A stretch of 39,952 nt of DNA from a virus (Duplodnaviria; Heunggongvirae; Uroviricota; Caudoviricetes). Of the stretch, positions 1 to 39,952 are shown piece after piece (the first letter of the stretch is position 1; every line of letters begins with the position of its first letter). Below the pieces are notes generated by a model. The model was not told the origin of the DNA. It searched no databases and was given only the letters and a program-made list of their open reading frames with translations. The translations under genes and the position numbers were made by a program. The stretch lies in the IMG/VR virus record IMGVR_UViG_2880384115_000007. The stretch is one strand, 5' to 3'.

Positions 1-516
1 ATGAAATTTAAAAAATGTCTTCTGCCTGTGGCAATGTTAGCGTCATTCACTCTGGCAGGATGCCAGTCAAATGCTGATGATCATGCCGCCGATGTTTATC
101 AAACCGATCAACTGAATACCAAACAAGAAACTAAAACCGTTAATATTATTTCCATTCTTCCCGCAAAAGTTGCCGTAGACAACGCCCAAAATAAACGGAA
201 CGCACAAGCCTTCGGCGCGCTTATTGGCGCTGTCGCTGGCGGTGTTATCGGCCACAACGTCGGGTCTGGCAGCAATTCCGGAACGACGGCAGGTGCAGTT
301 GGCGGCGGAGCTGTAGGCGCGGCAGCGGGTTCTATGGTGAATGATAAAACCTTAGTGGAAGGTGTTTCTTTAACATATAAGGAAGGCACCAAAGTGTATA
401 CCTCCACCCAAGTGGGTAAAGAGTGCCAGTTTACGACAGGTTTAGCCGTTGTTATTACCACGACGTATAACGAAACGCGTATTCAGCCAAATACCAAATG
501 TCCTGAAAAGAGCTAA
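1..516 (+). CDS. Glycine-zipper lipoprotein (YcfJ-like); probable host flanking gene
   Basis: ATG at position 1; signal peptide with lipobox LAGC; Gly/Ala-rich run GALIGAVAGGVIGH typical of glycine-zipper lipoproteins; lies beyond the phage lysis end. Confidence 0.55.
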   Translation: MKFKKCLLPVAMLASFTLAGCQSNADDHAADVYQTDQLNTKQETKTVNIISILPAKVAVDNAQNKRNAQAFGALIGAVAGGVIGHNVGSGSNSGTTAGAVGGGAVGAAAGSMVNDKTLVEGVSLTYKEGTKVYTSTQVGKECQFTTGLAVVITTTYNETRIQPNTKCPEKS

Positions 517-531
517 TAATCAGGAGGAGTC

Positions 532-1071
532 ATGAAGAAAGTTTTTCTTTGCGCCATCTTAGCCTCCTTAAGCTATCCGGCTATCGCCTCATCATTGCAG
601 GATCAACTCTCGGCTGTCGCAGAAGCGGAACAGCAAGGTAAAAATGAAGAGCAAAGGCAGCATGACGAATGGGTCGCGGAGCGCAACAGGGAAATCCAGC
701 AAGAGAAGCAACGTCGCGCAAACGCCCAGGCCGCGGCTAATAAAAGAGCGGCAACGGCAGCAGCGAATAAGAAAGCTCGTCAGGATAAACTGGACGCCGA
801 AGCCACTGCGGACAAAAAACGCGATCAAAGTTATGAAGATGAGCTACGTAGCTTAGAGATTCAGAAACAAAAACTGGCGCTGGCGAAAGAAGAAGCCCGC
901 GTTAAGCGCGAAAACGAATTTATCGATCAGGAACTGAAGCACAAAGCTGCGCAAACCGATGTGGTGCAATCTGAAGCTGACGCAAACAGAAATATGACTG
1001 AAGGCGGTCGCGATCTGATGAAAAGCGTGGGTAAAGCAGAAGAGAATAAATCAGATAGCTGGTTTAACTAA
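532..1071 (+). CDS. Secreted, highly charged coiled-coil protein of unknown function; probable host gene
   Basis: AGGAGG RBS upstream of ATG 532; N-terminal signal peptide; K/E/R/Q/A-rich helical sequence; strong terminator downstream. Confidence 0.5.
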   Translation: MKKVFLCAILASLSYPAIASSLQDQLSAVAEAEQQGKNEEQRQHDEWVAERNREIQQEKQRRANAQAAANKRAATAAANKKARQDKLDAEATADKKRDQSYEDELRSLEIQKQKLALAKEEARVKRENEFIDQELKHKAAQTDVVQSEADANRNMTEGGRDLMKSVGKAEENKSDSWFN

Positions 1072-3158: not shown

Positions 3159-5621
3159 TCAATTCCCTGTTAATTGCAAAACTTGCTCTTCCAGCTTTTT
3201 AACCCTGCGTCTCATCATCGCAGATTCCAGAATCAGAGCCTCTTCATAACGGATACCGTAACATTCACCAGCCTCGACGGCTTCGCGTACCAGAACCTTT
3301 GTCTGTATAAGTGGGTAAACTCCTGCAGAATGCTCTTCTTCCGTCACATCCCTGTATTCTGCCGGGGTCTCATTCCACTTGTCATAACAGATAAATGCCA
3401 GTCGTGACACATCTATGCCTTCATTCTGAAATACACTGATAACATGCTGCGCAACTGCACCAAAGTGCCATCTTGCTCCGTCTTTACCTTTCACTTCGAT
3501 CCTGTCAAGGTACTGGTATGAAACCCATTCCACTCTTTCCCATGCGTCCAGTATTTTCTCATCAATAACCTCTGGAGCAGTCTTGAAACGCGCATCGGAC
3601 AGCACCGTAAACGCTGACTGGGTAAATCCCCCCGACCATGCACGACCAGCCAACCCAAGAGAATAAGTATTCGTTGTCGATGGTGTCATGGCTGAATCAG
3701 AAAACTGTATATATTCTGAATTTCCAGTAGATATTCGAATATTTCCATTTATTAGCGACATAGTGCCTTTAGTATTATCACTATTGAATAATTTCAATTG
3801 CGAACTTATACCGCCTCCCACAGCCAGAGATACATCGCCTTCAGCAAGCATTCTGAATTTATCTGCAGAAACAAGCGTCTGGTTAGCAAGGTTAAAATAT
3901 TTAACCCACCATTCAAAATGCCCTGACATAGTCCCAACGTACTGACCAAGCGCAGGGACGTGAACAACATTGCTATTTGTAGTGCCGTCTATACTGGAAA
4001 TACCAGTCACCGCTGATGCAGAACTCAGAATATTATTTCTGTCACCCGGATGTTTAATTTCAACAAAGTTCCTGATACACCCTTCCTCGAAGGTAACCAC
4101 GCCGGAAGAACTATACATGGGGAATATTGACGCATAATTACTGCGTGCAGCATCTAAGAAACGAATGGTTGTAGATGTCTGCAGATCTCCTGATTCATTT
4201 TTCCCATCACACCCAGTCATTAGAATATTACTGGCAATATTATTATTTCCCTGAACGGTGACGCCGTGCGCCTGCTTTGCGTCCGATTCAGAGTAATCAA
4301 CCAGCACATCCGAAATCAGGTTACCAGTCCCCTTGCCAACAACTACTGCGGCGTATTTTGGGTTGTTAGCCATTACACTGCTAATGATATTATTCGTTGG
4401 GGCAGTTTCCGTCTCAGTTCCATTGTAAACAACGTGCTGACACTCTTCACCAATAACATTGCTGACAATGTTATATTTTGCTGCTGTTTTAAGTTCCACT
4501 GCACCAAACTGAGGATAATTTCTGGCTATCACACCATCAATTAGCGTATTTTGCGATGAATCAAAAAGCACACAACCTGCTTTTTTATTATTTGCGAACC
4601 CTAAATACTCTCCTCTTATATCTCTAACAATGTAACCTGACGGAATACCATTATCCGGATAAGCGATCAAGCTAAATCCTGGTCCTCGCGTATTTGTAAA
4701 TCTGATATTTTTAACCGATACATCATGGCCACCTGAAAATGACACCTGGTGTCCCTGCACACTATCATCTGATTTATTTCCCATAATTGTTAGCGTACTA
4801 AGCATGCCACCATCGGGCATGTTAAAAACCAGATGATTACCATCTCTGTCATACTGTTTTATCGTTCCCCCACCTGTTCCGTACAAGCCACAACGTGAAA
4901 GAGAAACTAAAGATGTATTGAATACCCCTTCCGGAACAAAAACACTGCTAAACGAATGTAATGATTTTGTAAAAGCATCCTTGTTATCATTTAAGATTCC
5001 ATTTTGAGCTCCAAAATCCTTAATGCTGACACCATCACGCATCTTATCCTGGAACGTTCTGTATACCGCTCCAGAACCATACTGAATAAACCAACCAAAA
5101 CCACCAATAACTCCGGCGATTGCAGCATCGACATAATTACGCATTGAGCGATTATTTACAGCGTCCTGCTCAAGTGATGGATCGGCAAGGTTAGATATTC
5201 TGTTTTGCTTTGCATCGTAATATTTTGCAAGCAAAGATGGTTTCATCAATGCACGTCTGAACCACCCAAAACATCGCTGGATCAGCATCGTCAGGTAGTC
5301 AAATGCATCCTCATGAACTTCGGGGAAAAATTTTCCCTGATTGCGAAGATCAGTCTCCTGCACCACATCAAGCACACGCTCTATCGTGATTCGCCAGCCA
5401 GCAGCAAGCGGCGACGGAAGAACCACTGCACCGCCACTATAAGTTCCCGCCCCTGTTACCGTATAACCAGCATCCAGCACTAGTTTTGTAACGTTACCGT
5501 TAAGGTCAGACACCTGAACAACCAGGTCGGATTTTTTGAAAATACGGAAGGTATACGGAAATGATGTCGTAACGCCGTTACCTGTGTATTCGTTGTGGTC
5601 AACTTCGGTTGAGACCGTCAT
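3159..5621 (-). CDS. Tailspike / receptor-binding depolymerase with C-terminal self-cleaving chaperone domain
   Basis: 820 aa; N-terminal ~130 aa resemble the T7 gp17-type tail-fibre anchor; central Gly/Asn/Ser/Thr-rich repetitive region typical of beta-helix depolymerases; C-terminus (SDARFKT...WHFGAVAQHV) resembles peptidase S74 intramolecular chaperone domains; centre and C-terminus look AT-rich by eye. Confidence 0.8.
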   Translation of the reverse strand: MTVSTEVDHNEYTGNGVTTSFPYTFRIFKKSDLVVQVSDLNGNVTKLVLDAGYTVTGAGTYSGGAVVLPSPLAAGWRITIERVLDVVQETDLRNQGKFFPEVHEDAFDYLTMLIQRCFGWFRRALMKPSLLAKYYDAKQNRISNLADPSLEQDAVNNRSMRNYVDAAIAGVIGGFGWFIQYGSGAVYRTFQDKMRDGVSIKDFGAQNGILNDNKDAFTKSLHSFSSVFVPEGVFNTSLVSLSRCGLYGTGGGTIKQYDRDGNHLVFNMPDGGMLSTLTIMGNKSDDSVQGHQVSFSGGHDVSVKNIRFTNTRGPGFSLIAYPDNGIPSGYIVRDIRGEYLGFANNKKAGCVLFDSSQNTLIDGVIARNYPQFGAVELKTAAKYNIVSNVIGEECQHVVYNGTETETAPTNNIISSVMANNPKYAAVVVGKGTGNLISDVLVDYSESDAKQAHGVTVQGNNNIASNILMTGCDGKNESGDLQTSTTIRFLDAARSNYASIFPMYSSSGVVTFEEGCIRNFVEIKHPGDRNNILSSASAVTGISSIDGTTNSNVVHVPALGQYVGTMSGHFEWWVKYFNLANQTLVSADKFRMLAEGDVSLAVGGGISSQLKLFNSDNTKGTMSLINGNIRISTGNSEYIQFSDSAMTPSTTNTYSLGLAGRAWSGGFTQSAFTVLSDARFKTAPEVIDEKILDAWERVEWVSYQYLDRIEVKGKDGARWHFGAVAQHVISVFQNEGIDVSRLAFICYDKWNETPAEYRDVTEEEHSAGVYPLIQTKVLVREAVEAGECYGIRYEEALILESAMMRRRVKKLEEQVLQLTGN

Positions 5622-5724: not shown

Positions 5725-5741
5725 ATTACCTTTCAGGTAAT
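5725..5741. promoter_or_regulatory. Dyad ATTACCTTTCAGGTAAT (TTACC-N5-GGTAA), candidate operator
   Basis: Perfect 7-3-7 inverted repeat between divergent tailspike gene and LexA-box gene; same dyad recurs at 10 other intergenic sites. Confidence 0.6.
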
Positions 5742-5777
5742 TTGCAAAACGTGCTGGATAGCAAACAAATTATTTGC

Positions 5778-5797
5778 TACTGTATAAATATACAGTT
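5778..5797. promoter_or_regulatory. LexA (SOS) box
   Basis: TACTGTATAAATATACAGTT matches the CTGT-N8-ACAG enterobacterial LexA consensus at 18 of 20 positions; directly upstream of the 5818..6075 gene. Confidence 0.8.
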
Positions 5798-5817
5798 ATT
5801 GCATGGAGAAGATTAAG

Positions 5818-6075
5818 ATGCAGCAGTATCACTATCCACTGGAAGAGGGATTTACCGAAAGGATTCACACGCCGGGAGGCGTCAGGTCACTGGTGGAGGG
5901 ATCGCACTTGATGAAATTACTCCGGGATCTCGATAAGGATGGATTTAATGTCGATGGCCCACTTGCCGAACTGACTGCACTGATTAACTACGTCACCAGC
6001 TCACAGATGTCTATGCAGGATCTGCAAACACATCTCGACTATTGTGCCGAACAATTACGAAAACAAACCAGATAA
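5818..6075 (+). CDS. Small LexA-controlled protein; candidate SOS-inducible antirepressor
   Basis: Start placed at second ATG (5818), which has a GGAG RBS; the 85-aa product aligns with the C-terminal ~65 aa of the Bro-N protein at 6391..7101; LexA box sits in its promoter. Confidence 0.5.
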   Translation: MQQYHYPLEEGFTERIHTPGGVRSLVEGSHLMKLLRDLDKDGFNVDGPLAELTALINYVTSSQMSMQDLQTHLDYCAEQLRKQTR

Positions 6076-6211
6076 GATTTGAAATTACCAATAGGAGTGC
6101 TTATATTTACCTTTGCAGTAAATTTACATCGCACTCCTCTTGTGCCATAGTAATCGGGCACTGGCAAAATCCAGTGCCGGGATTGGCGTCCCGGGTTACT
6201 AAGTGGCGCAT

Positions 6212-6235
6212 ACCACGCCAGACGTGGTTTTTTTA
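6212..6235 (+). terminator. Rho-independent terminator
   Basis: Stem ACCACG / CGTGGT with 5-nt loop followed by seven T; ends a structured untranslated stretch 6076..6235. Confidence 0.55.
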
Positions 6236-6390
6236 TGCGTTAAGCACAGCTATATCCGAATTATGGTGGGCTGGGCAGGGGTCCGAAAGGACGCCGGTAC
6301 CACTTAGGCCGGTACGCCAACCTTGTCCAGTTCACCACCAGTAATTGGCGTTGCGGTGGTGATTAAAATCACTAAGTGGAGATAACCACC

Positions 6391-7101
6391 ATGGCTAATG
6401 CTCAAACTGCCATCTTCAAATTTGAATCTGTTAACCCTATCCGTTCCATCATTATCGATGGCCAACCATGGTTTGTAGCCCAAGACGTTTGTAGTGCGCT
6501 GCGTATCCAAAACGTCACCCAAGCACTTGAAAAACTGGATGATGATGAAAGGTCTATGTTCAACATAGGGCATGAACATCGTGCAATTTTTGACAGCCGA
6601 GTAAAAGAGATCAACATTATCTCCGAGTCAGGCCTCTACACACTGATCCTCCGCTGCCGCGACGCAGTGACACCAGGCACTATCCCCTACCGCTTTCGTA
6701 AATGGGTTACAGGTGAGGTTCTTCCTCAGATCCGCCGCACCGGAAGTTACATTAAAAACTCGCTCCCGCAGGAAGAACGCATAAAGATGGTTGCCGACCA
6801 GGTAGCCAACGCCACAGCATCAGCAATGATGCAGGCAATGAAGATAGAGAACAAAACCTACAGTGCCCCACTGAAGCCCGGCTACCGTAGCCTGATTCAT
6901 TCTCCGTCTGGTGTTCTCGGCCTGACGGAGAACTCACTGCTGATGAATCTGCTGAACCAGTTACAGGACGACGGGCACGACGTATCGGGCGCGGCGGCGG
7001 AGCTGACCACCATGTTCTGCTACATCGTTGGTGTGAGCAAATGCCTGCGTGATATCCAGACGCACGCGGAGTACATCAACGACAAGGCAGGGTTCTTCTG
7101 A
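6391..7101 (+). CDS. Bro-N domain protein (antirepressor-like)
   Basis: Start at ATG 6391 with GGAG RBS (track start 6376 is GTG); N-terminus has Bro-N hallmarks (FKFESVNPIRSIIIDGQPWFVAQDV...LDDDER...FRKWVTGEVLPQIRRTGSY); C-terminal domain homologous to the 5818..6075 product. Confidence 0.75.
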   Translation: MANAQTAIFKFESVNPIRSIIIDGQPWFVAQDVCSALRIQNVTQALEKLDDDERSMFNIGHEHRAIFDSRVKEINIISESGLYTLILRCRDAVTPGTIPYRFRKWVTGEVLPQIRRTGSYIKNSLPQEERIKMVADQVANATASAMMQAMKIENKTYSAPLKPGYRSLIHSPSGVLGLTENSLLMNLLNQLQDDGHDVSGAAAELTTMFCYIVGVSKCLRDIQTHAEYINDKAGFF

Positions 7102-7173
7102 CGGGCGGCGGCACAGGGATGTGCCTTTAAATAATTCTGTACAGATTGCAGACTGGGGGTGAATAGCGTACTA

Positions 7174-7247: not shown

Positions 7248-7880
7248 ATGAGAACAAATACAACAAGAAAAGCGATGCCATACATTATCCCAGAAGCAGA
7301 TTTCGATAGAAAACTGAACATGTCTGAGAAGAACACTAGTCACACCGAAAGCTACTTAGCGAAAGGTGTGGTTGATTTCGTTCTTCCGGGATTCACAACA
7401 CCTTATGGTTATCGCCTTGTAAAATCTTGTAATGGCGATCATTACAGAATGATTACTACCAGCGATACTCCAGAAACGGTGTATGCGGTTAAGTTAATCT
7501 TTCGGGAAGATATCGTCGAAGCCAAAAGAACATGTACGCAGATCATGGTATGGCGTACGCCTAATGTTATTCATGACCGTGCTGTTCATGGTTTGCCTCA
7601 GATTTTTTTTCAGTTCTTCCTAGAGCAATATGCGATCGTTGTATCTGATGAGCAACAAACAATCGATGGGAGAAGATTCTGGGAAAGAATGATTTCTTGG
7701 GCTATAAACACCCCAGGATATAATGTATACGTTTCAGATGGCTCTGAAGAAGATAGACCTCTTAGCTTCATGGCATCATGGGATGATTTCTATAGCCAGT
7801 GGGCTGATTTCTGTTGGGGCAGTGATAAAGATGTGCATACCCACAGACTACTGGTTATAAGCAAAGATAAACTGCATTAA
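7248..7880 (+). CDS. Hypothetical protein, AT-rich moron
   Basis: 210-aa ORF with GGGAGG RBS and its own terminator; visibly more AT-rich than flanking phage genes; no recognisable motifs, no TM or signal peptide. Confidence 0.6.
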   Translation: MRTNTTRKAMPYIIPEADFDRKLNMSEKNTSHTESYLAKGVVDFVLPGFTTPYGYRLVKSCNGDHYRMITTSDTPETVYAVKLIFREDIVEAKRTCTQIMVWRTPNVIHDRAVHGLPQIFFQFFLEQYAIVVSDEQQTIDGRRFWERMISWAINTPGYNVYVSDGSEEDRPLSFMASWDDFYSQWADFCWGSDKDVHTHRLLVISKDKLH

Positions 7881-22448: not shown

Positions 22449-22745
22449 TCACTCCTGTTCACTGGCCTCTTTGGCCATCTTCAAATACTGTTCAGGGCAA
22501 TGCGCCATAACGCGCTGAAACAGTTCCAGCGCCAGATTGCGTTGCCCCTCATTAAATGCCATTGCCATAGCGTCCATCGGTGAGATAGCGGAAAACACAC
22601 GGCCTTTCTCCAGCACCGACCAGACAACGCGACGCCCTTGTTCACTGCTCATGACAAAGCGAATGTCATCAATTTCACGCTGCGCCATGTCACGTTGCTT
22701 ACGGGCGTTTTCTTCTTTCAGTTGATCGTCTTCGTAATCTGTCAT
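22449..22745 (-). CDS. Hypothetical small head-assembly protein
   Basis: 98 aa charged helical protein coupled between portal and scaffold genes. Confidence 0.4.
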   Translation of the reverse strand: MTDYEDDQLKEENARKQRDMAQREIDDIRFVMSSEQGRRVVWSVLEKGRVFSAISPMDAMAMAFNEGQRNLALELFQRVMAHCPEQYLKMAKEASEQE

Positions 22746-24421
22746 TGTGATTGCCCACCCTGACCACTAACTGCATTCGCCATAGCTGTCAAAACACTCG
22801 GATCCGAAGTTTTAGCTTCGCTTAGCGTCTTGGCACCCTGTGCCGCCGCCATCCCCACCGCCATCATTTGTTGTTGCTGTTGCTGCTGTGCCCGTTGCTG
22901 GCGAGCCTGCTCAACCTGTTCCTGCGGAACAATGACGGTTGGAGACACTCCGGACATATCAGCGAATGCATCGATCGCCTGATCAACGTTGAGTTTGTCG
23001 AGAGCTTCTGGTTTCGCTTGCGCAAGTTGACCAATGAAGTTAACCGTGGACGCCAGACTGGACAGGCCGATAGACTTCTGCGCCTGAGCCATGACGGAAA
23101 TGTATTCGACCTTCAGGGGCATACCTTCCATCACGTCTGGCGGTGGCGGCAGCATGTTTTTACGCACCATCATCGAGAAAGCGCGGTCAATGAGAGGATT
23201 AAGACATTCGTCGTTCAGGCGCTCCAGAACCGGCCCCAACATCAGAAGTTTTTCTTCTTTCATTTCGATCACCGCTTCAACAGGCATCGAGCGGGTATTG
23301 ATGTTCTGCAACATCATGAACAGATCGACAAAGTAGGCGCTGTTAATGATTTGACGAGTGTCCTGAATGTCTGCTACCAAATCTGCTGTACTGGGGTTAA
23401 CCAGATAAGCAGGCCTGAAGCCATCCTGACCAGTAATCTGATCGATATACGTGATGTCGCCAGGAAGAAGGGAGGCGCGCTGATTCTTGAGGGAAGTCGG
23501 AGCAACCATCGGCGGATTGGTGGCTTTATCAATCAACTGCGACTTGCGCTTCTGGAGAAGCTGCAATGCCTTAACAGGTCCAAGCGCCAGCATACCCGGG
23601 CATGATGATCCATAAACATCTTCGCCGTTAACTTCCCAGCGCGGAGCCATAATTGGAAACTCATCAAATCCGGACTCACGCAACAACTTGTCGTTATCGC
23701 CACCAACCTCGTAATAAACCGATTTGAATGGCTTGTTCTTGCTATCCAGCTTCGATGTATCGCGGTCAATGTTCGGGTAAACCGAATGCATCACGTCAAT
23801 CCACTTCTCGTAGGTGCCGCTTTCCCACATGCTTTTTACGGATTCGCTGACGTTATTTAGCCCGAACTCCTGAACAAGCTGACGAACAGTCATAGAGAAC
23901 TTGCGAAAACAGGTGTCCACACTGCCACGAGGTGAGTTAGCCAGGTAGTAACTGCCTATCGGGAATGGCATTGTGCGAATGATGTCCTCGTCATCCTCCA
24001 GCACCGCCATTGCACCAGTGCTGTATGTGCCGAGGCTTCCGTATAACTGCGGAAGAGACTGGTAGAGATTCGACTTATTGAACATATCGTTCATGCGGTT
24101 CTGCACCGCCTCGAGCCACAACTTAACAGGACCATAATCCATCATTTCAGGATCTGGCGTAGCCAGGCGAAACCACGGACGCGCAGGGCTTGTGATGCCT
24201 GACATCATGCCGCTGGCGAGAGTGCGCGCCGCCATAGTCCCGGTCGAATCAATAATGCGTGTATTGCGTCGATCGTTACGGTTGACCTCAGAAGTCAGAA
24301 AGCGGGAACCACGCGGGTTGATGTAATCACTCAACTCGCGCCAGTGCGGCTCGAACGACTGACGCTCGCTTTCAAGTTGTGCGAACTGTTTGTTCAATCG
24401 CTCTTTAGTTGTTTCCGCCAT
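22742..24421 (-). CDS. Portal protein
   Basis: 559 aa; size and position (after terminase, before scaffold and capsid); Gln/Ala-rich C-terminal tail common in podoviral portals. Confidence 0.75.
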   Translation of the reverse strand: MAETTKERLNKQFAQLESERQSFEPHWRELSDYINPRGSRFLTSEVNRNDRRNTRIIDSTGTMAARTLASGMMSGITSPARPWFRLATPDPEMMDYGPVKLWLEAVQNRMNDMFNKSNLYQSLPQLYGSLGTYSTGAMAVLEDDEDIIRTMPFPIGSYYLANSPRGSVDTCFRKFSMTVRQLVQEFGLNNVSESVKSMWESGTYEKWIDVMHSVYPNIDRDTSKLDSKNKPFKSVYYEVGGDNDKLLRESGFDEFPIMAPRWEVNGEDVYGSSCPGMLALGPVKALQLLQKRKSQLIDKATNPPMVAPTSLKNQRASLLPGDITYIDQITGQDGFRPAYLVNPSTADLVADIQDTRQIINSAYFVDLFMMLQNINTRSMPVEAVIEMKEEKLLMLGPVLERLNDECLNPLIDRAFSMMVRKNMLPPPPDVMEGMPLKVEYISVMAQAQKSIGLSSLASTVNFIGQLAQAKPEALDKLNVDQAIDAFADMSGVSPTVIVPQEQVEQARQQRAQQQQQQQMMAVGMAAAQGAKTLSEAKTSDPSVLTAMANAVSGQGGQSQ

Positions 24422-24435
24422 TTCAATGACTCCGG

Positions 24436-24642
24436 TTACTGACCAAGCAGCGTTTTACCGCTGGTATTAGCGGTTGATGTGTCGCCCTGAGAACCGGTAA
24501 GCAGCGTAGAACTACGACCAGCAGCAGCGCGACGGCGACGTGTTTCTTCGTCGCGGGCATCAACAACGGCGGCATCCTGCTCCTGTGGTGCTGCCTGAAC
24601 TTCTGGTGTTGCAGGCACTGATGGTGAGCTACCCATGCACAT
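24436..24642 (-). CDS. Small hypothetical protein upstream of portal
   Basis: 68 aa with GGAG RBS 8 nt before ATG; Ala/Thr/Ser/Arg-rich; ends 14 bp before the portal start. Confidence 0.35.
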   Translation of the reverse strand: MCMGSSPSVPATPEVQAAPQEQDAAVVDARDEETRRRRAAAGRSSTLLTGSQGDTSTANTSGKTLLGQ

Positions 24643-24732
24643 ATCAATGACTCCGTACGCAATTAAATTATTACCAATTTAACCACATATGATTTATTTA
24701 TCGTAGAAGGTTGACATTTGACGCGCGAATTA

Positions 24733-24747
24733 TTACCTTTCAGGTAA
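24733..24747. promoter_or_regulatory. TTACC-N5-GGTAA dyad in the portal-operon promoter region
   Basis: TTACCTTTCAGGTAA; TTGACA hexamer at 24711..24716 and conserved box AACCACATATG at 24681..24691 nearby. Confidence 0.55.
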
Positions 24748-25069
24748 CTAAAGAGCTCATTCCGGCTACTAACCTGACTGGCTTGTCGTTAAATTGAACA
24801 GGTGGAGTGAGATTTTATTTTGAGCAGTACGGCGTATGGCACATGCGCCGATAGCGGTCTGGATACGTTTAAGGGGCACCCTCCCTTGCTCGGGCAAACG
24901 AACCAGGTAGCCGGAATGTGCAAGTCGAGCGGTTTTATTCCGCGCACGGGGATTCACCATCCTGGCGATTCGGTGTGACGCCTCGGAAGAGACGAGGGTA
25001 CAACGATGAGAGCATTTATGGAGCCGCGACAAAGTGTGGCGCCTTAACAGGCTAAGTGCTCTCAGCGTT

Positions 25070-25146
25070 GTGGTATTAGCTCAGTTGGACAGAGCAACCG
25101 CCTTCTAAGCGGTTGGTCGCAGGTTCGAATCCTGCATGCCACGCCA
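25070..25146 (+). tRNA. tRNA-Arg (anticodon UCU)
   Basis: 77-nt cloverleaf folded by hand: 7-bp acceptor stem (one GU), D-arm GCTC/GAGC, anticodon stem ACCGC/GCGGT with loop CTTCTAA (anticodon TCT), T-arm GCAGG-TTCGAAT-CCTGC, 3' CCA encoded. Confidence 0.85.
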
Positions 25147-25189
25147 GAATCACGCCTAAGGACCGTGATACCAGAAGTTCCAGGTGCTT

Positions 25190-25231
25190 GGCGGTGATGG
25201 TTTCCCTTGAAGGACTATCACCGCCCTTTTT
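25190..25231 (+). terminator. Stem-loop terminator downstream of the tRNA
   Basis: 9-bp stem GGCGGTGAT / ATCACCGCC with 18-nt loop followed by five T. Confidence 0.5.
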
Positions 25232-25309
25232 ACAGCAGGACGCCATTGCGATGACTTCATGCTGTAAACCCGTACAGCCACGGAAGGCATAACTCATTGC
25301 TTCCAGTTC

Positions 25310-25333
25310 GCCCGGTTCGCCGGGCATTTTTTT
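25310..25333 (+). terminator. Rho-independent terminator (UUCG tetraloop)
   Basis: GCCCGG-ttcg-CCGGGC followed by seven T; ends about 10 nt before the RBS of 25345..25716. Confidence 0.65.
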
Positions 25334-25344
25334 AAGGTGAGATT

Positions 25345-25716
25345 ATGAACGACCAGCAAATCGAAAAAGAAATCGTTGAGAAAGGCAAAACGGCACCGCG
25401 CGTTACGCCAGACCATATCGAAGGCATTATTGCTCAGGAGGCATATTTCACAGCAGAAGATGGTGCCTTTGGCAAAGCCATAAAAGCGAAACATACTGGC
25501 GGAGAGGTAAACTACCAGCCGCACGAATCACTTTCTCTGCTGACGTTCTGCGTCCTGGTGCTGCGCAACGGCTTCACCGTCACCGGAGAGAGCGCCTGTG
25601 CAAGCCAGGAAAACTTTGATGCAGAAATTGGTCGGAAGATTGCCCGGCAGAATGCTGTAAACAAAATCTGGATGCTCGAAGGTTACTTGCTGAAGCAGAA
25701 GCTAAGCGAGCAATAA
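25345..25716 (+). CDS. Conserved phage protein, possibly Gp49/Sf6-gene-66-like family
   Basis: 123-aa ORF with AAGGTGA RBS; contains the block LRNGFTVTGESACASQENFDAEIGRKIARQNA that I associate with that family (from memory, unverified). Confidence 0.5.
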   Translation: MNDQQIEKEIVEKGKTAPRVTPDHIEGIIAQEAYFTAEDGAFGKAIKAKHTGGEVNYQPHESLSLLTFCVLVLRNGFTVTGESACASQENFDAEIGRKIARQNAVNKIWMLEGYLLKQKLSEQ

Positions 25717-25806: not shown

Positions 25807-27282
25807 TTAAGCATATGGATCGTAATCTGTGATGGCCTTGCCTTGCTGGTTCTGCTGCCCGGGAATTCGCAGACGCTTCGACACAGGGAACGCAAACGTC
25901 AGCAGTAGCGCATCGCCTTTACCAGGAGAACGCCCAAGCCGCTCCTTGATATCTTCCTTCGGTTCGATAACGATTTTACCGTCCACTCGAACTTTGTACT
26001 CTGCCGCAGACAGGTCGTCCGCTGTTTCCTGGTCATCCAGCATGCCGCCCAGCCTCAGCCATGTCTTGCATGAGTTGAACATCTCCCCACGCTTGTTGAG
26101 CATCTGCGGGTCAGTAGACGCGCCACCGAACGGAACAAGTTGCCATGTACGACCCCAGCCATCACCGATTGACTTCAGACCAGTTCCGTAACCGAAGTCG
26201 ATGAACACCGCGTCAGCCTGGTACTGGTCTTCAAAGTCAGCGATACGCTTCGCCATAATCAGATCGTCGGTGGTCTTGTTACCAGTCCATAGCACCTTAC
26301 TGTGCAGCCCCTGCCGCAGGTATATCACCGCGTCATCAACGCCTGAATATGCCGGGTCAACACCGATTATCACCGGAGCATGCGCCACCTGCGCAGCGGT
26401 TACCACCCGTTTCATTGCCTCATCAGTAAGACCGGTAGGGATAAACTGCAATTCAGATGCATCAGGGAATATGCCGCGCACACGGATTTTAACGAAGTCG
26501 CTGTCTTCCCCGTAGTCATCAACCCATTTCTGCAACTGCTGTTTGTTAGTGCCTTCCACCGTCCGGCTGTCAATCTGCGCAGTTTTCCAGCGGTGTTTAT
26601 ATTTGCGGAAACATTCACGGAATCGCCCGGTATTACGCGTCGGGTTTCCGAACGCCACCCAGATAATCTCAGTGTCTTCGTCCGTTAGCGCACCTTCGGC
26701 AACTTCCCACACCAGATCCGCAATATTCGACGCTTCATCGAATACCACGATGATGCGTTTGCGCTCGTTGTGTAGTCCGGCGAATGCCTCAGTGTTGTGC
26801 TCAGACCAGGGGATTGCGTCAGCTCGCCACCGCTTGTCGTGTCCAGGGTCATTGCTGTACATCGCGGTAGCTGTACAGGTAAACCAGTCTTTCGTGATAG
26901 CAAGGTTTGACCACTTGATAATTTCCGGCCAGGTCTTCGTTCGTAGCTGGTTGTCGGTGTTGGCGGTCACCACGACCTTACAATCCTCGCAAGTGGACAT
27001 GCCCCAGTTGATCAGCATTGAGATGAATGCGGATTTACCAATACCGTGACCCGAAGCACGTGCCAGCATAAGCGGCTGATAGCGCGTCTCTGGATTCTGC
27101 AGGTGATCACGTATCTCTCGGAACGCATCAGCCTGCCACTTACGTGGGCCGGTAGCATGTGCCAGTTCAGTCCCCTCTTCCCCCCACGGGAACGCATAGA
27201 GGGCATAGCCAAGCGGATCGTGAGTGAACCCTGCAATATCCTCGATCAACTGCTCTTCAGGAGATAACGCTGTATCTGTCAC
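25807..27282 (-). CDS. Terminase large subunit
   Basis: 491 aa; N-terminal ATPase region with Walker-A-like GHGIGKS and C-terminal nuclease-like region; GTG start overlapping the small-subunit stop. Confidence 0.8.
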   Translation of the reverse strand: MTDTALSPEEQLIEDIAGFTHDPLGYALYAFPWGEEGTELAHATGPRKWQADAFREIRDHLQNPETRYQPLMLARASGHGIGKSAFISMLINWGMSTCEDCKVVVTANTDNQLRTKTWPEIIKWSNLAITKDWFTCTATAMYSNDPGHDKRWRADAIPWSEHNTEAFAGLHNERKRIIVVFDEASNIADLVWEVAEGALTDEDTEIIWVAFGNPTRNTGRFRECFRKYKHRWKTAQIDSRTVEGTNKQQLQKWVDDYGEDSDFVKIRVRGIFPDASELQFIPTGLTDEAMKRVVTAAQVAHAPVIIGVDPAYSGVDDAVIYLRQGLHSKVLWTGNKTTDDLIMAKRIADFEDQYQADAVFIDFGYGTGLKSIGDGWGRTWQLVPFGGASTDPQMLNKRGEMFNSCKTWLRLGGMLDDQETADDLSAAEYKVRVDGKIVIEPKEDIKERLGRSPGKGDALLLTFAFPVSKRLRIPGQQNQQGKAITDYDPYA

Positions 27283-27875
27283 TGATTACCATCCTGACGT
27301 TCTTTGAGTCGCTTCCTGGCTGCTGCTATGCGATCAGCAATTGTCACATTCACATTAACATCCAGACGTTCTTTGAACGCGTTGACATCAACATGCTTAC
27401 CAATCAGCTCAAGGTTCTTCACCTTGTCAGGCCATTTAATTTTTTTGAGGATTGTCTCTATCGAATCCTCGTTCATGTTCATGATGGTCGATGACAGATC
27501 AAAGCCACTAAGCGTAGTGCGCCAGATTTTCGGCCACTCACGGATTGGTTTAAGGCTCCCATCGTCGTTGAGGATGTCGATCACGTCCATCTGGTCGATC
27601 TCCACCAGGCGCATGAGAACGTAATCAGCACTGACGCGCATTCGTTTGTTGCGCTCCTCCATCAACTCGGCAATCCGTTTTTGAATGCGTTCATCGCGCA
27701 TCATGACGCTGGCTTTAACTGCCGCTGTATTTGGGGAGAATCCTGCGTTAATCGCTGCCTGAGTCTGGTTTTCAGGCGTTTTGATGTATGACTGGCAATA
27801 AGCCTCCTGCATTGCTGTTAGTGGCTTAAATTGCGTTGATTTGCGTTTATAGGTTTTAGGTTCAGCAGGCATCAT
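27279..27875 (-). CDS. Terminase small subunit
   Basis: Start moved to ATG 27875 (RBS GGTGG upstream); conserved block YCQSYIKTPENQTQAAINAGFSPNTAAVKAS typical of small terminase subunits; the track's longer N-terminus would put the palindrome at 27985 inside its RBS. Confidence 0.65.
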   Translation of the reverse strand: MMPAEPKTYKRKSTQFKPLTAMQEAYCQSYIKTPENQTQAAINAGFSPNTAAVKASVMMRDERIQKRIAELMEERNKRMRVSADYVLMRLVEIDQMDVIDILNDDGSLKPIREWPKIWRTTLSGFDLSSTIMNMNEDSIETILKKIKWPDKVKNLELIGKHVDVNAFKERLDVNVNVTIADRIAAARKRLKERQDGNQ

Positions 27876-27984
27876 AACCACCGTGGTAATAGTTACCGTT
27901 TTGGTAATAGTACCATGCAAAATAAAGCCGCCATAGTTGGCGGCAGTATCCAAAACCGTCAAATTCATCATGCATAATCTACTC

Positions 27985-33798: not shown

Positions 33799-34383
33799 AT
33801 GAAAAGTATCCAGGACGTCCGCAGGCAAAATCTCAACGACTTGATCGACCGTGAATTCAATGGTGTTCAGACGCGGATGGCAGAAAAACTTGGAACTCAG
33901 GCAAATCTGGTAAACCGCTGGGCTCTTGGCAAGAAGGTTATCGGCGACCAGGTTGCGCGAAAAATTGAAGCTGCCGCCAATAAACCACGTAACTGGCTTG
34001 ATATCGATCGCTCGCTTTCTCAGGAAGGTTTTCAGCCTGTCGGCCCAAGCGACATTGGTCAGCTGGCGGCTCACAACCTGGAACGCTGGATGAGCGAAAG
34101 CCGCGACCTTTCAACACAGGGAAAACTTCACCGCGCATCCGGCGTCGCCCAGGTGACAATCAGCCGCCTGTTAAACAATGAGGTCAGCGTTTCCATTTCC
34201 ACCCTGGAGAATGTTGCATCCGCATTCGGGCGTCACGGCTATGAATTACTGATTCACCCGCACGACCCTGCGACCATCAACTATGACCGCTCGCGCTACG
34301 CATTGTTACCCGAAACCGAGAAAGCAAAGATCGAAAGTTATATTGAATTTGTCATCAACCAGAACGAAAAAAACAAACAATAA
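33799..34383 (+). CDS. CI-like prophage repressor, two HTH domains, no S24 peptidase domain
   Basis: N-terminus (MKSIQDVRRQNLNDLIDREFNGVQTRMAEKLGTQANLVNRWALGKK) resembles phage CI-repressor HTH domains; second HTH-like segment (VAQVTISRLLNNEVSVSISTLENVA); no Ala-Gly / Ser...Lys autocleavage module. Confidence 0.65.
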   Translation: MKSIQDVRRQNLNDLIDREFNGVQTRMAEKLGTQANLVNRWALGKKVIGDQVARKIEAAANKPRNWLDIDRSLSQEGFQPVGPSDIGQLAAHNLERWMSESRDLSTQGKLHRASGVAQVTISRLLNNEVSVSISTLENVASAFGRHGYELLIHPHDPATINYDRSRYALLPETEKAKIESYIEFVINQNEKNKQ

Positions 34384-38695: not shown

Positions 38696-39952
38696 TTATT
38701 TATTACTGTCTTCCATCCACTTCTCAAACTTCGACGGGGAGAACGGAATCAGATCCGTATGCTCCCCGTCAATCCAGGAATCAATCATATCTGCCCACTG
38801 CTGCAACATGTAGGCGCGCTGTCTGGCGTATTCCGCTTTGTTATATACGGCGCGCACACCTTTCTGCTCATGTGCCAGAGCCTTTTCAATCCAGTCTGAA
38901 GGATAACCAGCCTCATGCAACAACGTACTGGCTGTACGGCGCATATCGTGTACGGTGAAGTCCTGAATATGCTCACCATCTTCATTTATTATTTTCACCG
39001 TTCTGTCGATCAGAGAGTTCAACGCGGCATTAGATAATGGCTTCCGGAAATTGTAACGACCAGGAACCAGGTATTCACTTCCACCAGCGCACATCTGCAA
39101 CCCAACCAATATATCCTGTGCTTGTTTAGGCAGGTAAATAACGTGCGCCCGGCTTCCCTTCATGCGGCCTGAAGGAATTGTCCATGTCCATTTTTTAAAA
39201 TCTATTTCATCCCACGTTGCATTGGTGAATTCGCCTTTACGAACCATAGTGATAAGCACCAGCTTTAAAGCCATTTTCATAGTGCCCATAGCACCAATGG
39301 CATCCAGCGTGCGGAAGAACAGACCAATTTCTTCTGGTGTCAGTGTTCGCTCTCGTGGTTTAAATATGGCGATAGACGAAGGTTTAATGTCAGCAGCAGG
39401 ATTAAACAAACCATGACCACGGTCATTGGCGTGACGGTATACGCTGCTGATGATCTCCCTGGCCTGTACTGCTGTTGCCCGACCACCGCGTTCGACAATC
39501 CGGTCACACAAATCACGAACCATCGATGTGGTAATTTCAGCCATCATTTTGTTGCCAAGAACCGGAAGTATGTCACGGTCGATCACCGCCTGCTTCATTG
39601 CGCGGGTACTTTCAGCCAGGATGACGTGTTTCATATAACTGTCGGTATGTACCGCAAACGTCTCGGCACCACGAATCTTTTTGATACCGTCACGTTTAGC
39701 CGCAGCCGGCGACTGGCCTGCTTTAAGCAGCTTCTTTGCAGCAATCAGTTCTTCTCGCGCTTCTGCCAGGCTGATACCGTCACGCCCATACTGCCCGATT
39801 ACCAGTGTTTCGCGGCGACCGTTGATACGGTAGTCATAGCGAAACGAGACCGTACCTGACGTAAGCACAGCTACATACAGCCCGTCACGATCGGAAACTT
39901 TGTACAGTTTGTCCTGTGGCTTGAGGTTTTTTAATTTTGTATCGGTAAGCAC
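38696..39952 (-). CDS. int: Tyrosine integrase, P4-like family (N-terminus at the window edge)
   Basis: 418 aa; N-terminal arm domain (LTDTKLKNLKPQDKLYKVSDRDGLYVAV) and C-terminal catalytic domain (…HDMRRTASTLL…ALAH…VYNKAEY); ORF begins with GTG at the last window base so the true start may lie outside. Confidence 0.85.
   Translation of the reverse strand: MLTDTKLKNLKPQDKLYKVSDRDGLYVAVLTSGTVSFRYDYRINGRRETLVIGQYGRDGISLAEAREELIAAKKLLKAGQSPAAAKRDGIKKIRGAETFAVHTDSYMKHVILAESTRAMKQAVIDRDILPVLGNKMMAEITTSMVRDLCDRIVERGGRATAVQAREIISSVYRHANDRGHGLFNPAADIKPSSIAIFKPRERTLTPEEIGLFFRTLDAIGAMGTMKMALKLVLITMVRKGEFTNATWDEIDFKKWTWTIPSGRMKGSRAHVIYLPKQAQDILVGLQMCAGGSEYLVPGRYNFRKPLSNAALNSLIDRTVKIINEDGEHIQDFTVHDMRRTASTLLHEAGYPSDWIEKALAHEQKGVRAVYNKAEYARQRAYMLQQWADMIDSWIDGEHTDLIPFSPSKFEKWMEDSNK

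Follow-up and report, generated by a model that had tools for sequence, protein, structure and literature searches.

What is a plus-strand tRNA gene doing inside the minus-strand late operon of a temperate phage, and what is the stretch free of convincing open reading frames (ORFs) that leads up to it? The question is raised by a viral DNA of 39,952 nucleotides (IMG/VR record IMGVR_UViG_2880384115_000007, class Caudoviricetes; the whole of this DNA is called the window below), which is 98% identical to phiV10-type phages, members of the genus Uetakevirus and kin of epsilon15. An initial annotation had placed an intact tRNA-Arg(UCU) gene between the minus-strand portal and terminase genes, away from the integration end, and had suggested that the leader ahead of it might encode a structured RNA; both statements are borne out (Table 1). 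To judge from covariation across 28 diverged homologues, positions 24828..25069 of this leader are a member of a conserved family of pseudoknotted RNAs, with a core of about 165 nucleotides (nt) and a closing stem, P6. The initial annotation in fact underestimated the leader, which on the comparative evidence belongs to a mobile RNA family of unrelated phages and is not private to this tRNA.

The fold is drawn from an alignment (A2) of 28 copies, all pairwise less than 97% identical, which was the source of both the pair counts and a covariance model (R1). In this alignment, 95.7% of the cells lie in standard pairs, as against 29–42% once the 3' partners are slid by one to three columns; 12 pairs have changed on both sides and the covariation score is 0.244, and none of 500 shuffles reaches either value. 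This covariation supports the hairpins P1, P4 and P5, the long helix P2 and the pseudoknot PK2, whose CACC:GGUG pairing has become AACC:GGUU twice independently, once among the mEp460 group and once at another locus (L256). The model R1 scores 24828..25004 at 144.8 bits (E = 1.6e-40), the sole copy in the window. Since most of the A2 sequences were gathered through the 19-mer GGTAGCCGGAATGTGCAAG, its invariance is partly a matter of construction; BLAST and a differently anchored scan independently recovered additional members, including one that is altered within the 19-mer. As regards the strand, 69 of the 923 A2 cells are G-U pairs, one U-G pair being invariant in all 28 copies, and on the opposite strand such pairs would turn into A-C mismatches; thus, the folded strand is that of the tRNA. 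The short segment that precedes the core in the predicted transcript is conserved among Uetakevirus relatives, and its window copy folds no better than expected (z = -0.25).

The region does not look protein-coding. The ORFs within 24663..25069 are all short, in keeping with the ORF-free leader of the initial annotation; the longest minus-strand ORFs of the relatives use any of three frames for the 19-mer, and the core lengths of the loci differ by non-multiples of three, which together argue that the leader is not coding. A reading in which the region encodes protein on the minus strand, or in which the fold belongs to the DNA or to the minus strand, could appeal to the proteins annotated on that strand in mEp460 and phiV10, and to the minus strand likewise folding better than its shuffles (z = -3.77). 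It is nonetheless very improbable, given the inconsistent frames and indels, the G-U cells with their invariant U-G pair that turn into mismatches on the other strand, and the fact that the phiV10 protein runs antisense to the tRNA itself. The annotations in question are the hypothetical protein PhiV10p04 in phiV10 (locus L001, 3177..3428), antisense to the tRNA, and gp36 and gp37 in mEp460 (locus L005, 2443..2996), opposite the structured RNA; all three are probably spurious. The practical point is that several deposited genomes annotate probably spurious proteins opposite this RNA and tRNA.

How widely the RNA occurs can be gauged from a sensitive BLAST search with 24643..25069 against phage genomes, which returned 88 records. 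Beyond the Uetakeviruses, the part from 24829 on recurs at about 80–83% identity in unrelated phages: the lambdoid phages mEp460, cdtI and mEp390 along with Stx2c and Stx2a phages, the Klebsiella phage SopranoGao, one Stenotrophomonas phage, and P1 and its relatives, where the core lies between trnI and ban. The 19-mer is found in at least 120 IMG/VR contigs, and the element in 1112 of 5426 complete Escherichia coli genomes, at 964 chromosomal and 358 plasmid places; among the matches listed, almost no annotated feature lies beneath it (one hypothetical protein) and no annotated RNA. The pattern used for scanning genome contigs was too degenerate: 5 of 120 loci were real, and these came from Kosakonia, Phytobacter and one other. 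Sampling of the taxonomic range beyond phage collections is therefore poor. An origin as the leader of the host argU gene was ruled out, about 80% of E. coli genomes lacking the element.

Searches for a known RNA class yielded the tRNA and, elsewhere in the window, the C4/isrK pair as the Rfam matches. With Rfam 15 at E values up to 10, nothing matched 24828..25069 in the window copy, and the one match to the core of a full lambdoid copy was a minus-strand chance hit of 14.6 bits (CC0196, E = 1); at gathering scores, none of 13 further loci gave a match. In particular, no riboswitch, T-box, ROOL, GOLLD, EAR, Y RNA or tmRNA model of Rfam matches the core. The ROOL and GOLLD RNAs are large, ornate, prophage-borne RNAs of 580–800 nt with no known function, often found beside tRNA genes, mainly in Firmicutes and metagenomes. 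The present family resembles them in being an intricately folded prophage RNA adjoining a tRNA but differs in matching neither of them in Rfam, in its smaller size, in residing in phages of Gammaproteobacteria and in lying behind repressor-controlled promoters. No description of the family was found in the literature searched, which included the text of the 19-mer and covered subscription journals thinly, so that a prior description is possible. The structured RNA appears to be undescribed, the tRNA being already known. If it is undescribed, as the searches suggest, few structured RNAs that lack annotation in E. coli would be as common: about 20% of complete genomes have it, and its carriers include Shiga-toxin phages and P1-type phage-plasmids.

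The copies of the core are mosaic, the apex of P2, P3, P5 and the insert closed by P6 being shuffled among them. In some copies (IMG/VR loci of the L012 type), P5 gives way to another module, AGCCCAGACGATATCTGAGTGGCT...CAGATGGGAGCCGGTGGAATCCCGGCACACAAC, which stands as an additional downstream unit in SopranoGao (locus L007, 2780..2850). One IMG/VR contig (L025) has two core copies about 730 nt apart, the second of them decaying and flanking a SieB-like superinfection-exclusion gene that is encoded on the opposite strand; recombination inside the cassette seems to have brought this moron in. Such shuffling, the decaying duplicate beside the sieB-like moron and the laboratory dispensability of the ban operon, the site of the copy in phage P1 (PMC10695390), are what would be expected of a conserved block without a function of its own, be it a recombination joint, a selfish hitch-hiker or an aid to the stability or processing of the neighbouring tRNA or mRNA. 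This is an unlikely account, because the compensatory changes in five helices and the near-invariant loops across host genera point to selection on the folded RNA and not on a DNA joint alone.

At its 3' end, the element is joined to a tRNA in a precise manner. P6 has a local fold of -32 kcal/mol (z = -4.36) and is retained at 13–15 base pairs (bp) in at least eight differing sequence versions. Its 3' end (...GCGUUG) is fused directly to tRNA-Arg(UCU) in 28 of 127 related loci, which is the junction seen in the window, and to one of two tRNA-like modules in 51 of them; folding covered the first of the two module types, which forms a four-arm cloverleaf. The P1-type copies (about 20) and some others have neither after the core, the P1-type copies having a tRNA-Ile2 ahead of it instead. 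A further hairpin just 3' of the tRNA is kept behind the tRNA in a Klebsiella relative (alignment A4), and its flank also occurs behind the tRNA-like modules of some IMG/VR copies. In the Salmonella phage SPN1S (locus L251, 1800..1916), a longer P6 insert stands just before the tRNA-Arg; it holds two hairpins with the T-loop-like loops UUCAAUU and UUCGAUU.

The tRNA itself is a standard cloverleaf. It is the one tRNA that ARAGORN finds over the whole window (Arg, anticodon TCT), it scores 71.1 bits with the Rfam tRNA model RF00005 (threshold 29 bits) and so belongs to that family, and it carries A20 and C35, which we take to be identity elements; the intact plus-strand gene of the initial annotation is thereby confirmed. 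Several records of near-identical, phiV10-type phages already label its counterpart tRNA-Arg, and the gene is thus ordinary and already known. Set against other phage-borne tRNA-Arg(UCU) genes, the tRNA is the same, and what is unusual is its base-exact fusion to the 3' end of a conserved RNA. The window has 86 AGA codons among 12368: 13 fall in the tailspike gene (3159..5621), AGA accounts for 10 of the 14 Arg codons of the plus-strand ORF 7248..7880, and further ones fall in tail genes, with a count of zero in the head, portal and terminase genes. Given this concentration, a supply of tRNA for the AGA codons of the tailspike, moron and tail genes seems a reasonable idea, and the heavier use in tailspike and moron genes agrees with what had been proposed for them. 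ORF 7248..7880 also has a low G+C fraction (0.41), no Pfam match and an operator ahead of it at 7173, and is the most phage-tRNA-dependent gene of the window.

The stretch 24711..25333 can be read as one plus-strand non-coding transcription unit, transcription itself being inferred. It runs from a sigma-70-type promoter with its overlapping operator through a short 5' segment, the core, P6 and tRNA-Arg(UCU) to two terminators and then a small cargo gene. The TTGACA hexamer noted in the initial annotation lies exactly where it was reported, and its TTGAC is invariant across six Uetakevirus relatives (alignment A3); the candidate -10 element is too weak against the consensus for the promoter scan to report, and transcription would start near 24746. 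The operator dyad that had also been noted there is one of 14 sites in the window for ATTACCN5GGTAAT with up to two mismatches, where 1.2 are expected and none of 100 shuffles reaches 14. These sites include 5725, 7173, 24732, 27874, 27892, 31335, 31397, 33728, 34440 and 34502; they flank the helix-turn-helix repressor gene 33799..34383 on both sides and precede other transcription units, and in epsilon15 the site homologous to that of the cassette is annotated as a repressor-binding site. As the over-represented dyad marks many promoter regions, one repressor seems to control directly most transcription units of this phage.

Behind the tRNA, the two tandem terminators that had been reported are found as intrinsic-terminator-like sites, with a T run after each. 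The first (T1) is homologous to the terminator of the lambdoid cassettes and its stems covary (A4), while the second (T2) is kept in relatives. The homology between the Uetakevirus and lambdoid cassettes extends past the tRNA-shaped module, through T1 and into the next hairpin, and an intrinsic terminator occurs within 830 nt in 74 of 99 distinct contexts, at a median of 284 nt from the start of the 19-mer. The Shine-Dalgarno sequence of the cargo gene, AAGGTGA, directly adjoins the T run of T2, and a promoter scan between the tRNA and the cargo ORF found no promoter-like site; in relatives, the cargo slot holds another gene or none. Together with a tRNA or tRNA-shaped module and T1, the family makes up a cassette that moves among temperate phages of unrelated kinds.

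Table 1. Features of the cassette and its surroundings in the window (strand "." = dyad; paired segments of a helix are separated by a slash).
Feature	Position	Strand	Basis or remark
Portal gene	22742..24421	-	
Small gp3-like ORF	24436..24642	-	
-35 hexamer TTGACA of the cassette promoter	24711..24716	+	read from sequence
Repressor operator dyad ATTACC-TTTCA-GGTAAC (ATTACC-N5-GGTAAC)	24732..24748	.	overlaps the -10 element and start site
Inferred -10 element TACCTT, 17 bp past the -35	24734..24739	+	spacing and A3 conservation
5' transcript segment, degenerate P6-like module, motif GTCGTTAAAT	24747..24826	+	conserved in A3 relatives
Structured RNA core	24828..25004	+	covariance model R1 and A2 pair counts
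P1 hairpin	24830-34/24846-50	+	
Putative PK1 pseudoknot, P1 loop GGCACAU with AUGUGC	24839-44/24916-21	+	
P2 long helix, variable tip	24855-62/24903-07 plus 24911-13	+	
Invariant 19-mer GGTAGCCGGAATGTGCAAG	24906..24924	+	
P3	variable		
P4 hairpin, loop UCACC	24949-53/24959-63	+	
PK2 pseudoknot, P4 loop CACC with GGUG	24955-58/24972-75	+	
P5 hairpin, loop GAAGAGA	24981-85/24993-97	+	
Linker ACAAC	25000-04	+	
P6, closes variable insert	25001..25070	+	outermost pair takes first base of tRNA
tRNA-Arg(UCU), encoded CCA	25070..25146	+	ARAGORN and Rfam tRNA model
Hairpin ATCACG...CGTGAT just 3' of tRNA	25149..25169	+	read from sequence
Terminator T1, 14-bp stem GGCGGTGATGG.../...CTATCACCGCC then CTTTTT	25190..25232	+	terminator scan (site 25190..25225)
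Hairpin TTTACAGCA...TGCTGTAAA, starting inside the T run of T1	25229..25268	+	read from sequence; lambdoid counterpart (A4)
Terminator T2, GCCCGG-TTCG-CCGGGC then ATTTTTTT	25310..25333	+	terminator scan (site 25310..25325)
Cargo gene, ORF 25345..25716, N4 Gp49 / Sf6 gp66 family	25334..25716	+	Pfam PF13876, E = 1.8e-34
Large terminase gene	25807..27282	-	
Integrase gene	38696..39952		far from tRNA

A core followed by a terminator invites the reading that the core is a riboswitch-like or T-box-like tRNA sensor, which would decide whether transcription stops at T1 and T2 according to a host metabolite or to tRNA status, and would thereby tie early phage gene expression to it. The two pseudoknots and the many invariant unpaired bases resemble those of aptamers, a terminator follows the core in 74 of the 99 contexts, and some P6 inserts have T-loop-like hairpins. 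Such a sensor is quite improbable all the same: the gap from core to T1 is 150–250 nt and includes a whole tRNA, no convincing alternative pairing between core and terminator was seen, the phage P1 copy is without a detected downstream terminator, and no riboswitch or T-box model matches.

The other carriers indicate where in a phage genome the cassette is placed. In the lambdoid phages, a cI-like repressor gene is followed by a terminator, by a pair of operator-like repeats similar to one of the cI-cro region, and then by the cassette, whose position is, by this gene order, the slot of the early-left promoter leader. In mEp460, Q is annotated and N is not, and the early-left genes behind the cassette extend over about 5.5 kb as far as xis; Stx2a_WGPS2 and mEp390 share this arrangement. 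The first ORFs downstream of the lambdoid cassettes are not classed as N by PHROGs, and an N annotation is absent from mEp460, the only carrier whose full annotation was read, and from between cI and the early-left genes in Stx2a_WGPS2 and mEp390. In phage P1, the core sits in the C1-controlled ban operon. In all of these settings, as in the window and epsilon15, the family thus has an early promoter under repressor control ahead of it.

Two known leaders offer comparisons for such a slot. In the lambda nutL/N leader and the PR'-6S RNA-tR' unit, a terminator halts any polymerase that has not been modified. The cassette is like nutL in following cI and OL/PL, and like PR'-6S RNA-tR' in being a short leader with a terminator at its end. 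It is unlike a lambda nut site in that the boxA-like UGCUCUU lies inside the stem P6 and covaries, and hence is not a conserved single-stranded boxA, and in that no N was found by PHROGs or annotation. Resemblances to ops (the RfaH site) and boxA spotted by eye were dropped, their key positions differing or lying in covarying stems. The second comparison is with put, which acts in cis on the zinc-binding domain of the beta-prime subunit and so renders RNA polymerase terminator-resistant. The put elements of HK022 and HK639 are RNA-only leader elements just past the early-left promoter of lambdoid phages without N, ahead of terminators (PMC9378689). The cassette is like put in being promoter-proximal in an early operon of lambdoid phages without an annotated N, and upstream of terminators. 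It is unlike put, which is about 70 nt long (126 nt as annotated in HK639) with two stem-loops and a triplex, in having a core of about 165 nt, two pseudoknots, P6 and a tRNA or tRNA-like module. Homology to put was tried and rejected: run on HK022 and HK639, including the early region of the former and the annotated putL-like RNA of the latter, with filters off, R1 reaches 4.7 bits at best.

In light of these layouts, the explanation that we place first, as a possible one still short of probable, is that the cassette encodes a put-like, self-sufficient antitermination RNA with the tRNA or tRNA-like module as an RNase P processing handle. A repressor-controlled early promoter would give rise to a plus-strand precursor made up of the core, P6 and tRNA-Arg. 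RNase P cuts the 5' end of every tRNA, so that this precursor would be cut between 25069 and 25070, which would release the structured RNA along with a tRNA-Arg able to read AGA codons. The structured RNA would act on the polymerase that is making it, as HK022 put does, with an unrelated fold, and the modified polymerase would pass the cassette's own terminators, reaching the cargo gene in the window and, in lambdoid phages without an annotated N, the whole early-left operon. The use of a tRNA fold to shape an RNA end has parallels in the P1/P7 C4 and P4 CI RNAs and in MALAT1-mascRNA, whose ends are made by RNase P on a tRNA-like fold of the precursor; here the sequence is unrelated to these and the processing is predicted, and the window's genuine C4/isrK module lies elsewhere, at 6158..6342.

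Favouring antitermination are the promoter-proximal placement in three phage lineages, the conserved terminator heading long operons in phages without an annotated N, and the ribosome-binding site of the cargo gene, which adjoins T2 behind a promoter-free gap. It is a more doubtful step to see here a new class of RNA antiterminator, with a fold unlike that of put, that replaces N in a large lambdoid group and is exchanged among lambdoid, P1-like and epsilon15-like phages as a package of antiterminator, tRNA or mimic, and terminators. The RNA would be a concrete candidate for how SfV-, mEp460- and cdtI-type phages, in which N is unannotated, pass the strong terminator that heads the left operon; and because it stands at the start of repressor-controlled early lytic transcription, its position would suit a regulator of early gene expression, of excision or of escape from host defences.

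Several observations weigh against this explanation. The phage P1 copy has no P6 and is 2.3 kb from the annotated promoter, and no terminator was found in the 830 bases scanned behind it. Epsilon15 keeps the terminator and a Gp49-like cargo gene despite a degenerate core, so that core and cargo can be lost independently. Uetakevirus copies such as L066 and L102 have the cassette and no downstream gene on the same strand. In the window, where the gene layout is convergent, a polymerase that read on processively would also pass the terminator after the cargo gene and transcribe the terminase genes in antisense. Each phage has a single copy, with none in the right operon, as against the two put sites of HK022, and the RNA is two to five times the size of put and without similarity to it. 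Within the fold, variants in the 5' strand of PK1, sought in four targeted scans, show one-sided changes alone and no compensatory change: two C-to-U changes and one A-to-G change retain wobble pairs, and a C-to-A change, in three loci, breaks a pair. PK1, whose strands are complementary and invariant in the alignment, thus stays inferred, its changes being one-sided.

Some of the same observations would fit a stand-alone early RNA that is released by RNase P and acts in trans, as a decoy, inhibitor or scaffold for a conserved component of the host or of its defences, much as is suspected of the phage-borne ROOL and GOLLD RNAs, with T1 and T2 as its ends and the cargo gene expressed by leak-through. 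This, too, is doubtful taken singly but almost as likely as antitermination, the sensor, the passive joint and the coding readings all ranking lower. A cassette that carries its own terminator between phage types would suit it, as would the islands that consist of the cassette with no downstream gene, and SopranoGao, where the cassette appears to be served by a separate promoter that is far from the start of any operon. The unpaired nucleotides are near-invariant from phages of Escherichia to those of Stenotrophomonas, which suggests a conserved binding partner; most copies have a tRNA or tRNA-shaped neighbour (28 with tRNA-Arg, 51 with a tRNA-like module and about 20 after tRNA-Ile2), and the first product of an early promoter would be an apt place for an anti-defence RNA. 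Against it, no partner and no co-occurring protein gene was found, the homology of the cassettes runs on past T1, and a strong terminator would head the 5.5-kb early-left operon of phages without an annotated N, with nothing to overcome it.

The antitermination and trans-acting readings aside, a few features of the carriers deserve mention. In epsilon15 (locus L002, 3546..3650), the tRNA and most of the core are lost, and the P1 hairpin and half of P2 are left, with a score of 33 bits. Among the operators of the window, two at 27874..27908 fall inside the first 33 codons of the longest small-terminase ORF (27279..27971, minus strand). The real start of this gene is probably the internal methionine of MPAEPK, as in epsilon15, which would put these operators just upstream of the packaging operon. 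A P1/P7-type immI-like module occupies 5725..7101, with a perfect operator dyad (5725..5741), the isrK RNA (6158..6234), the C4 antisense RNA (6259..6342) and an ORF resembling a Bro-N antirepressor (6376..7101); the same C4/isrK pair is also present in the lambdoid carriers mEp460 and one Stx2c phage. At the start of the window (1..1071), two small plus-strand ORFs code for a glycine-zipper/TraT-like lipoprotein and a DUF5384 protein, which may belong to the flanking host DNA or serve lysogenic conversion.

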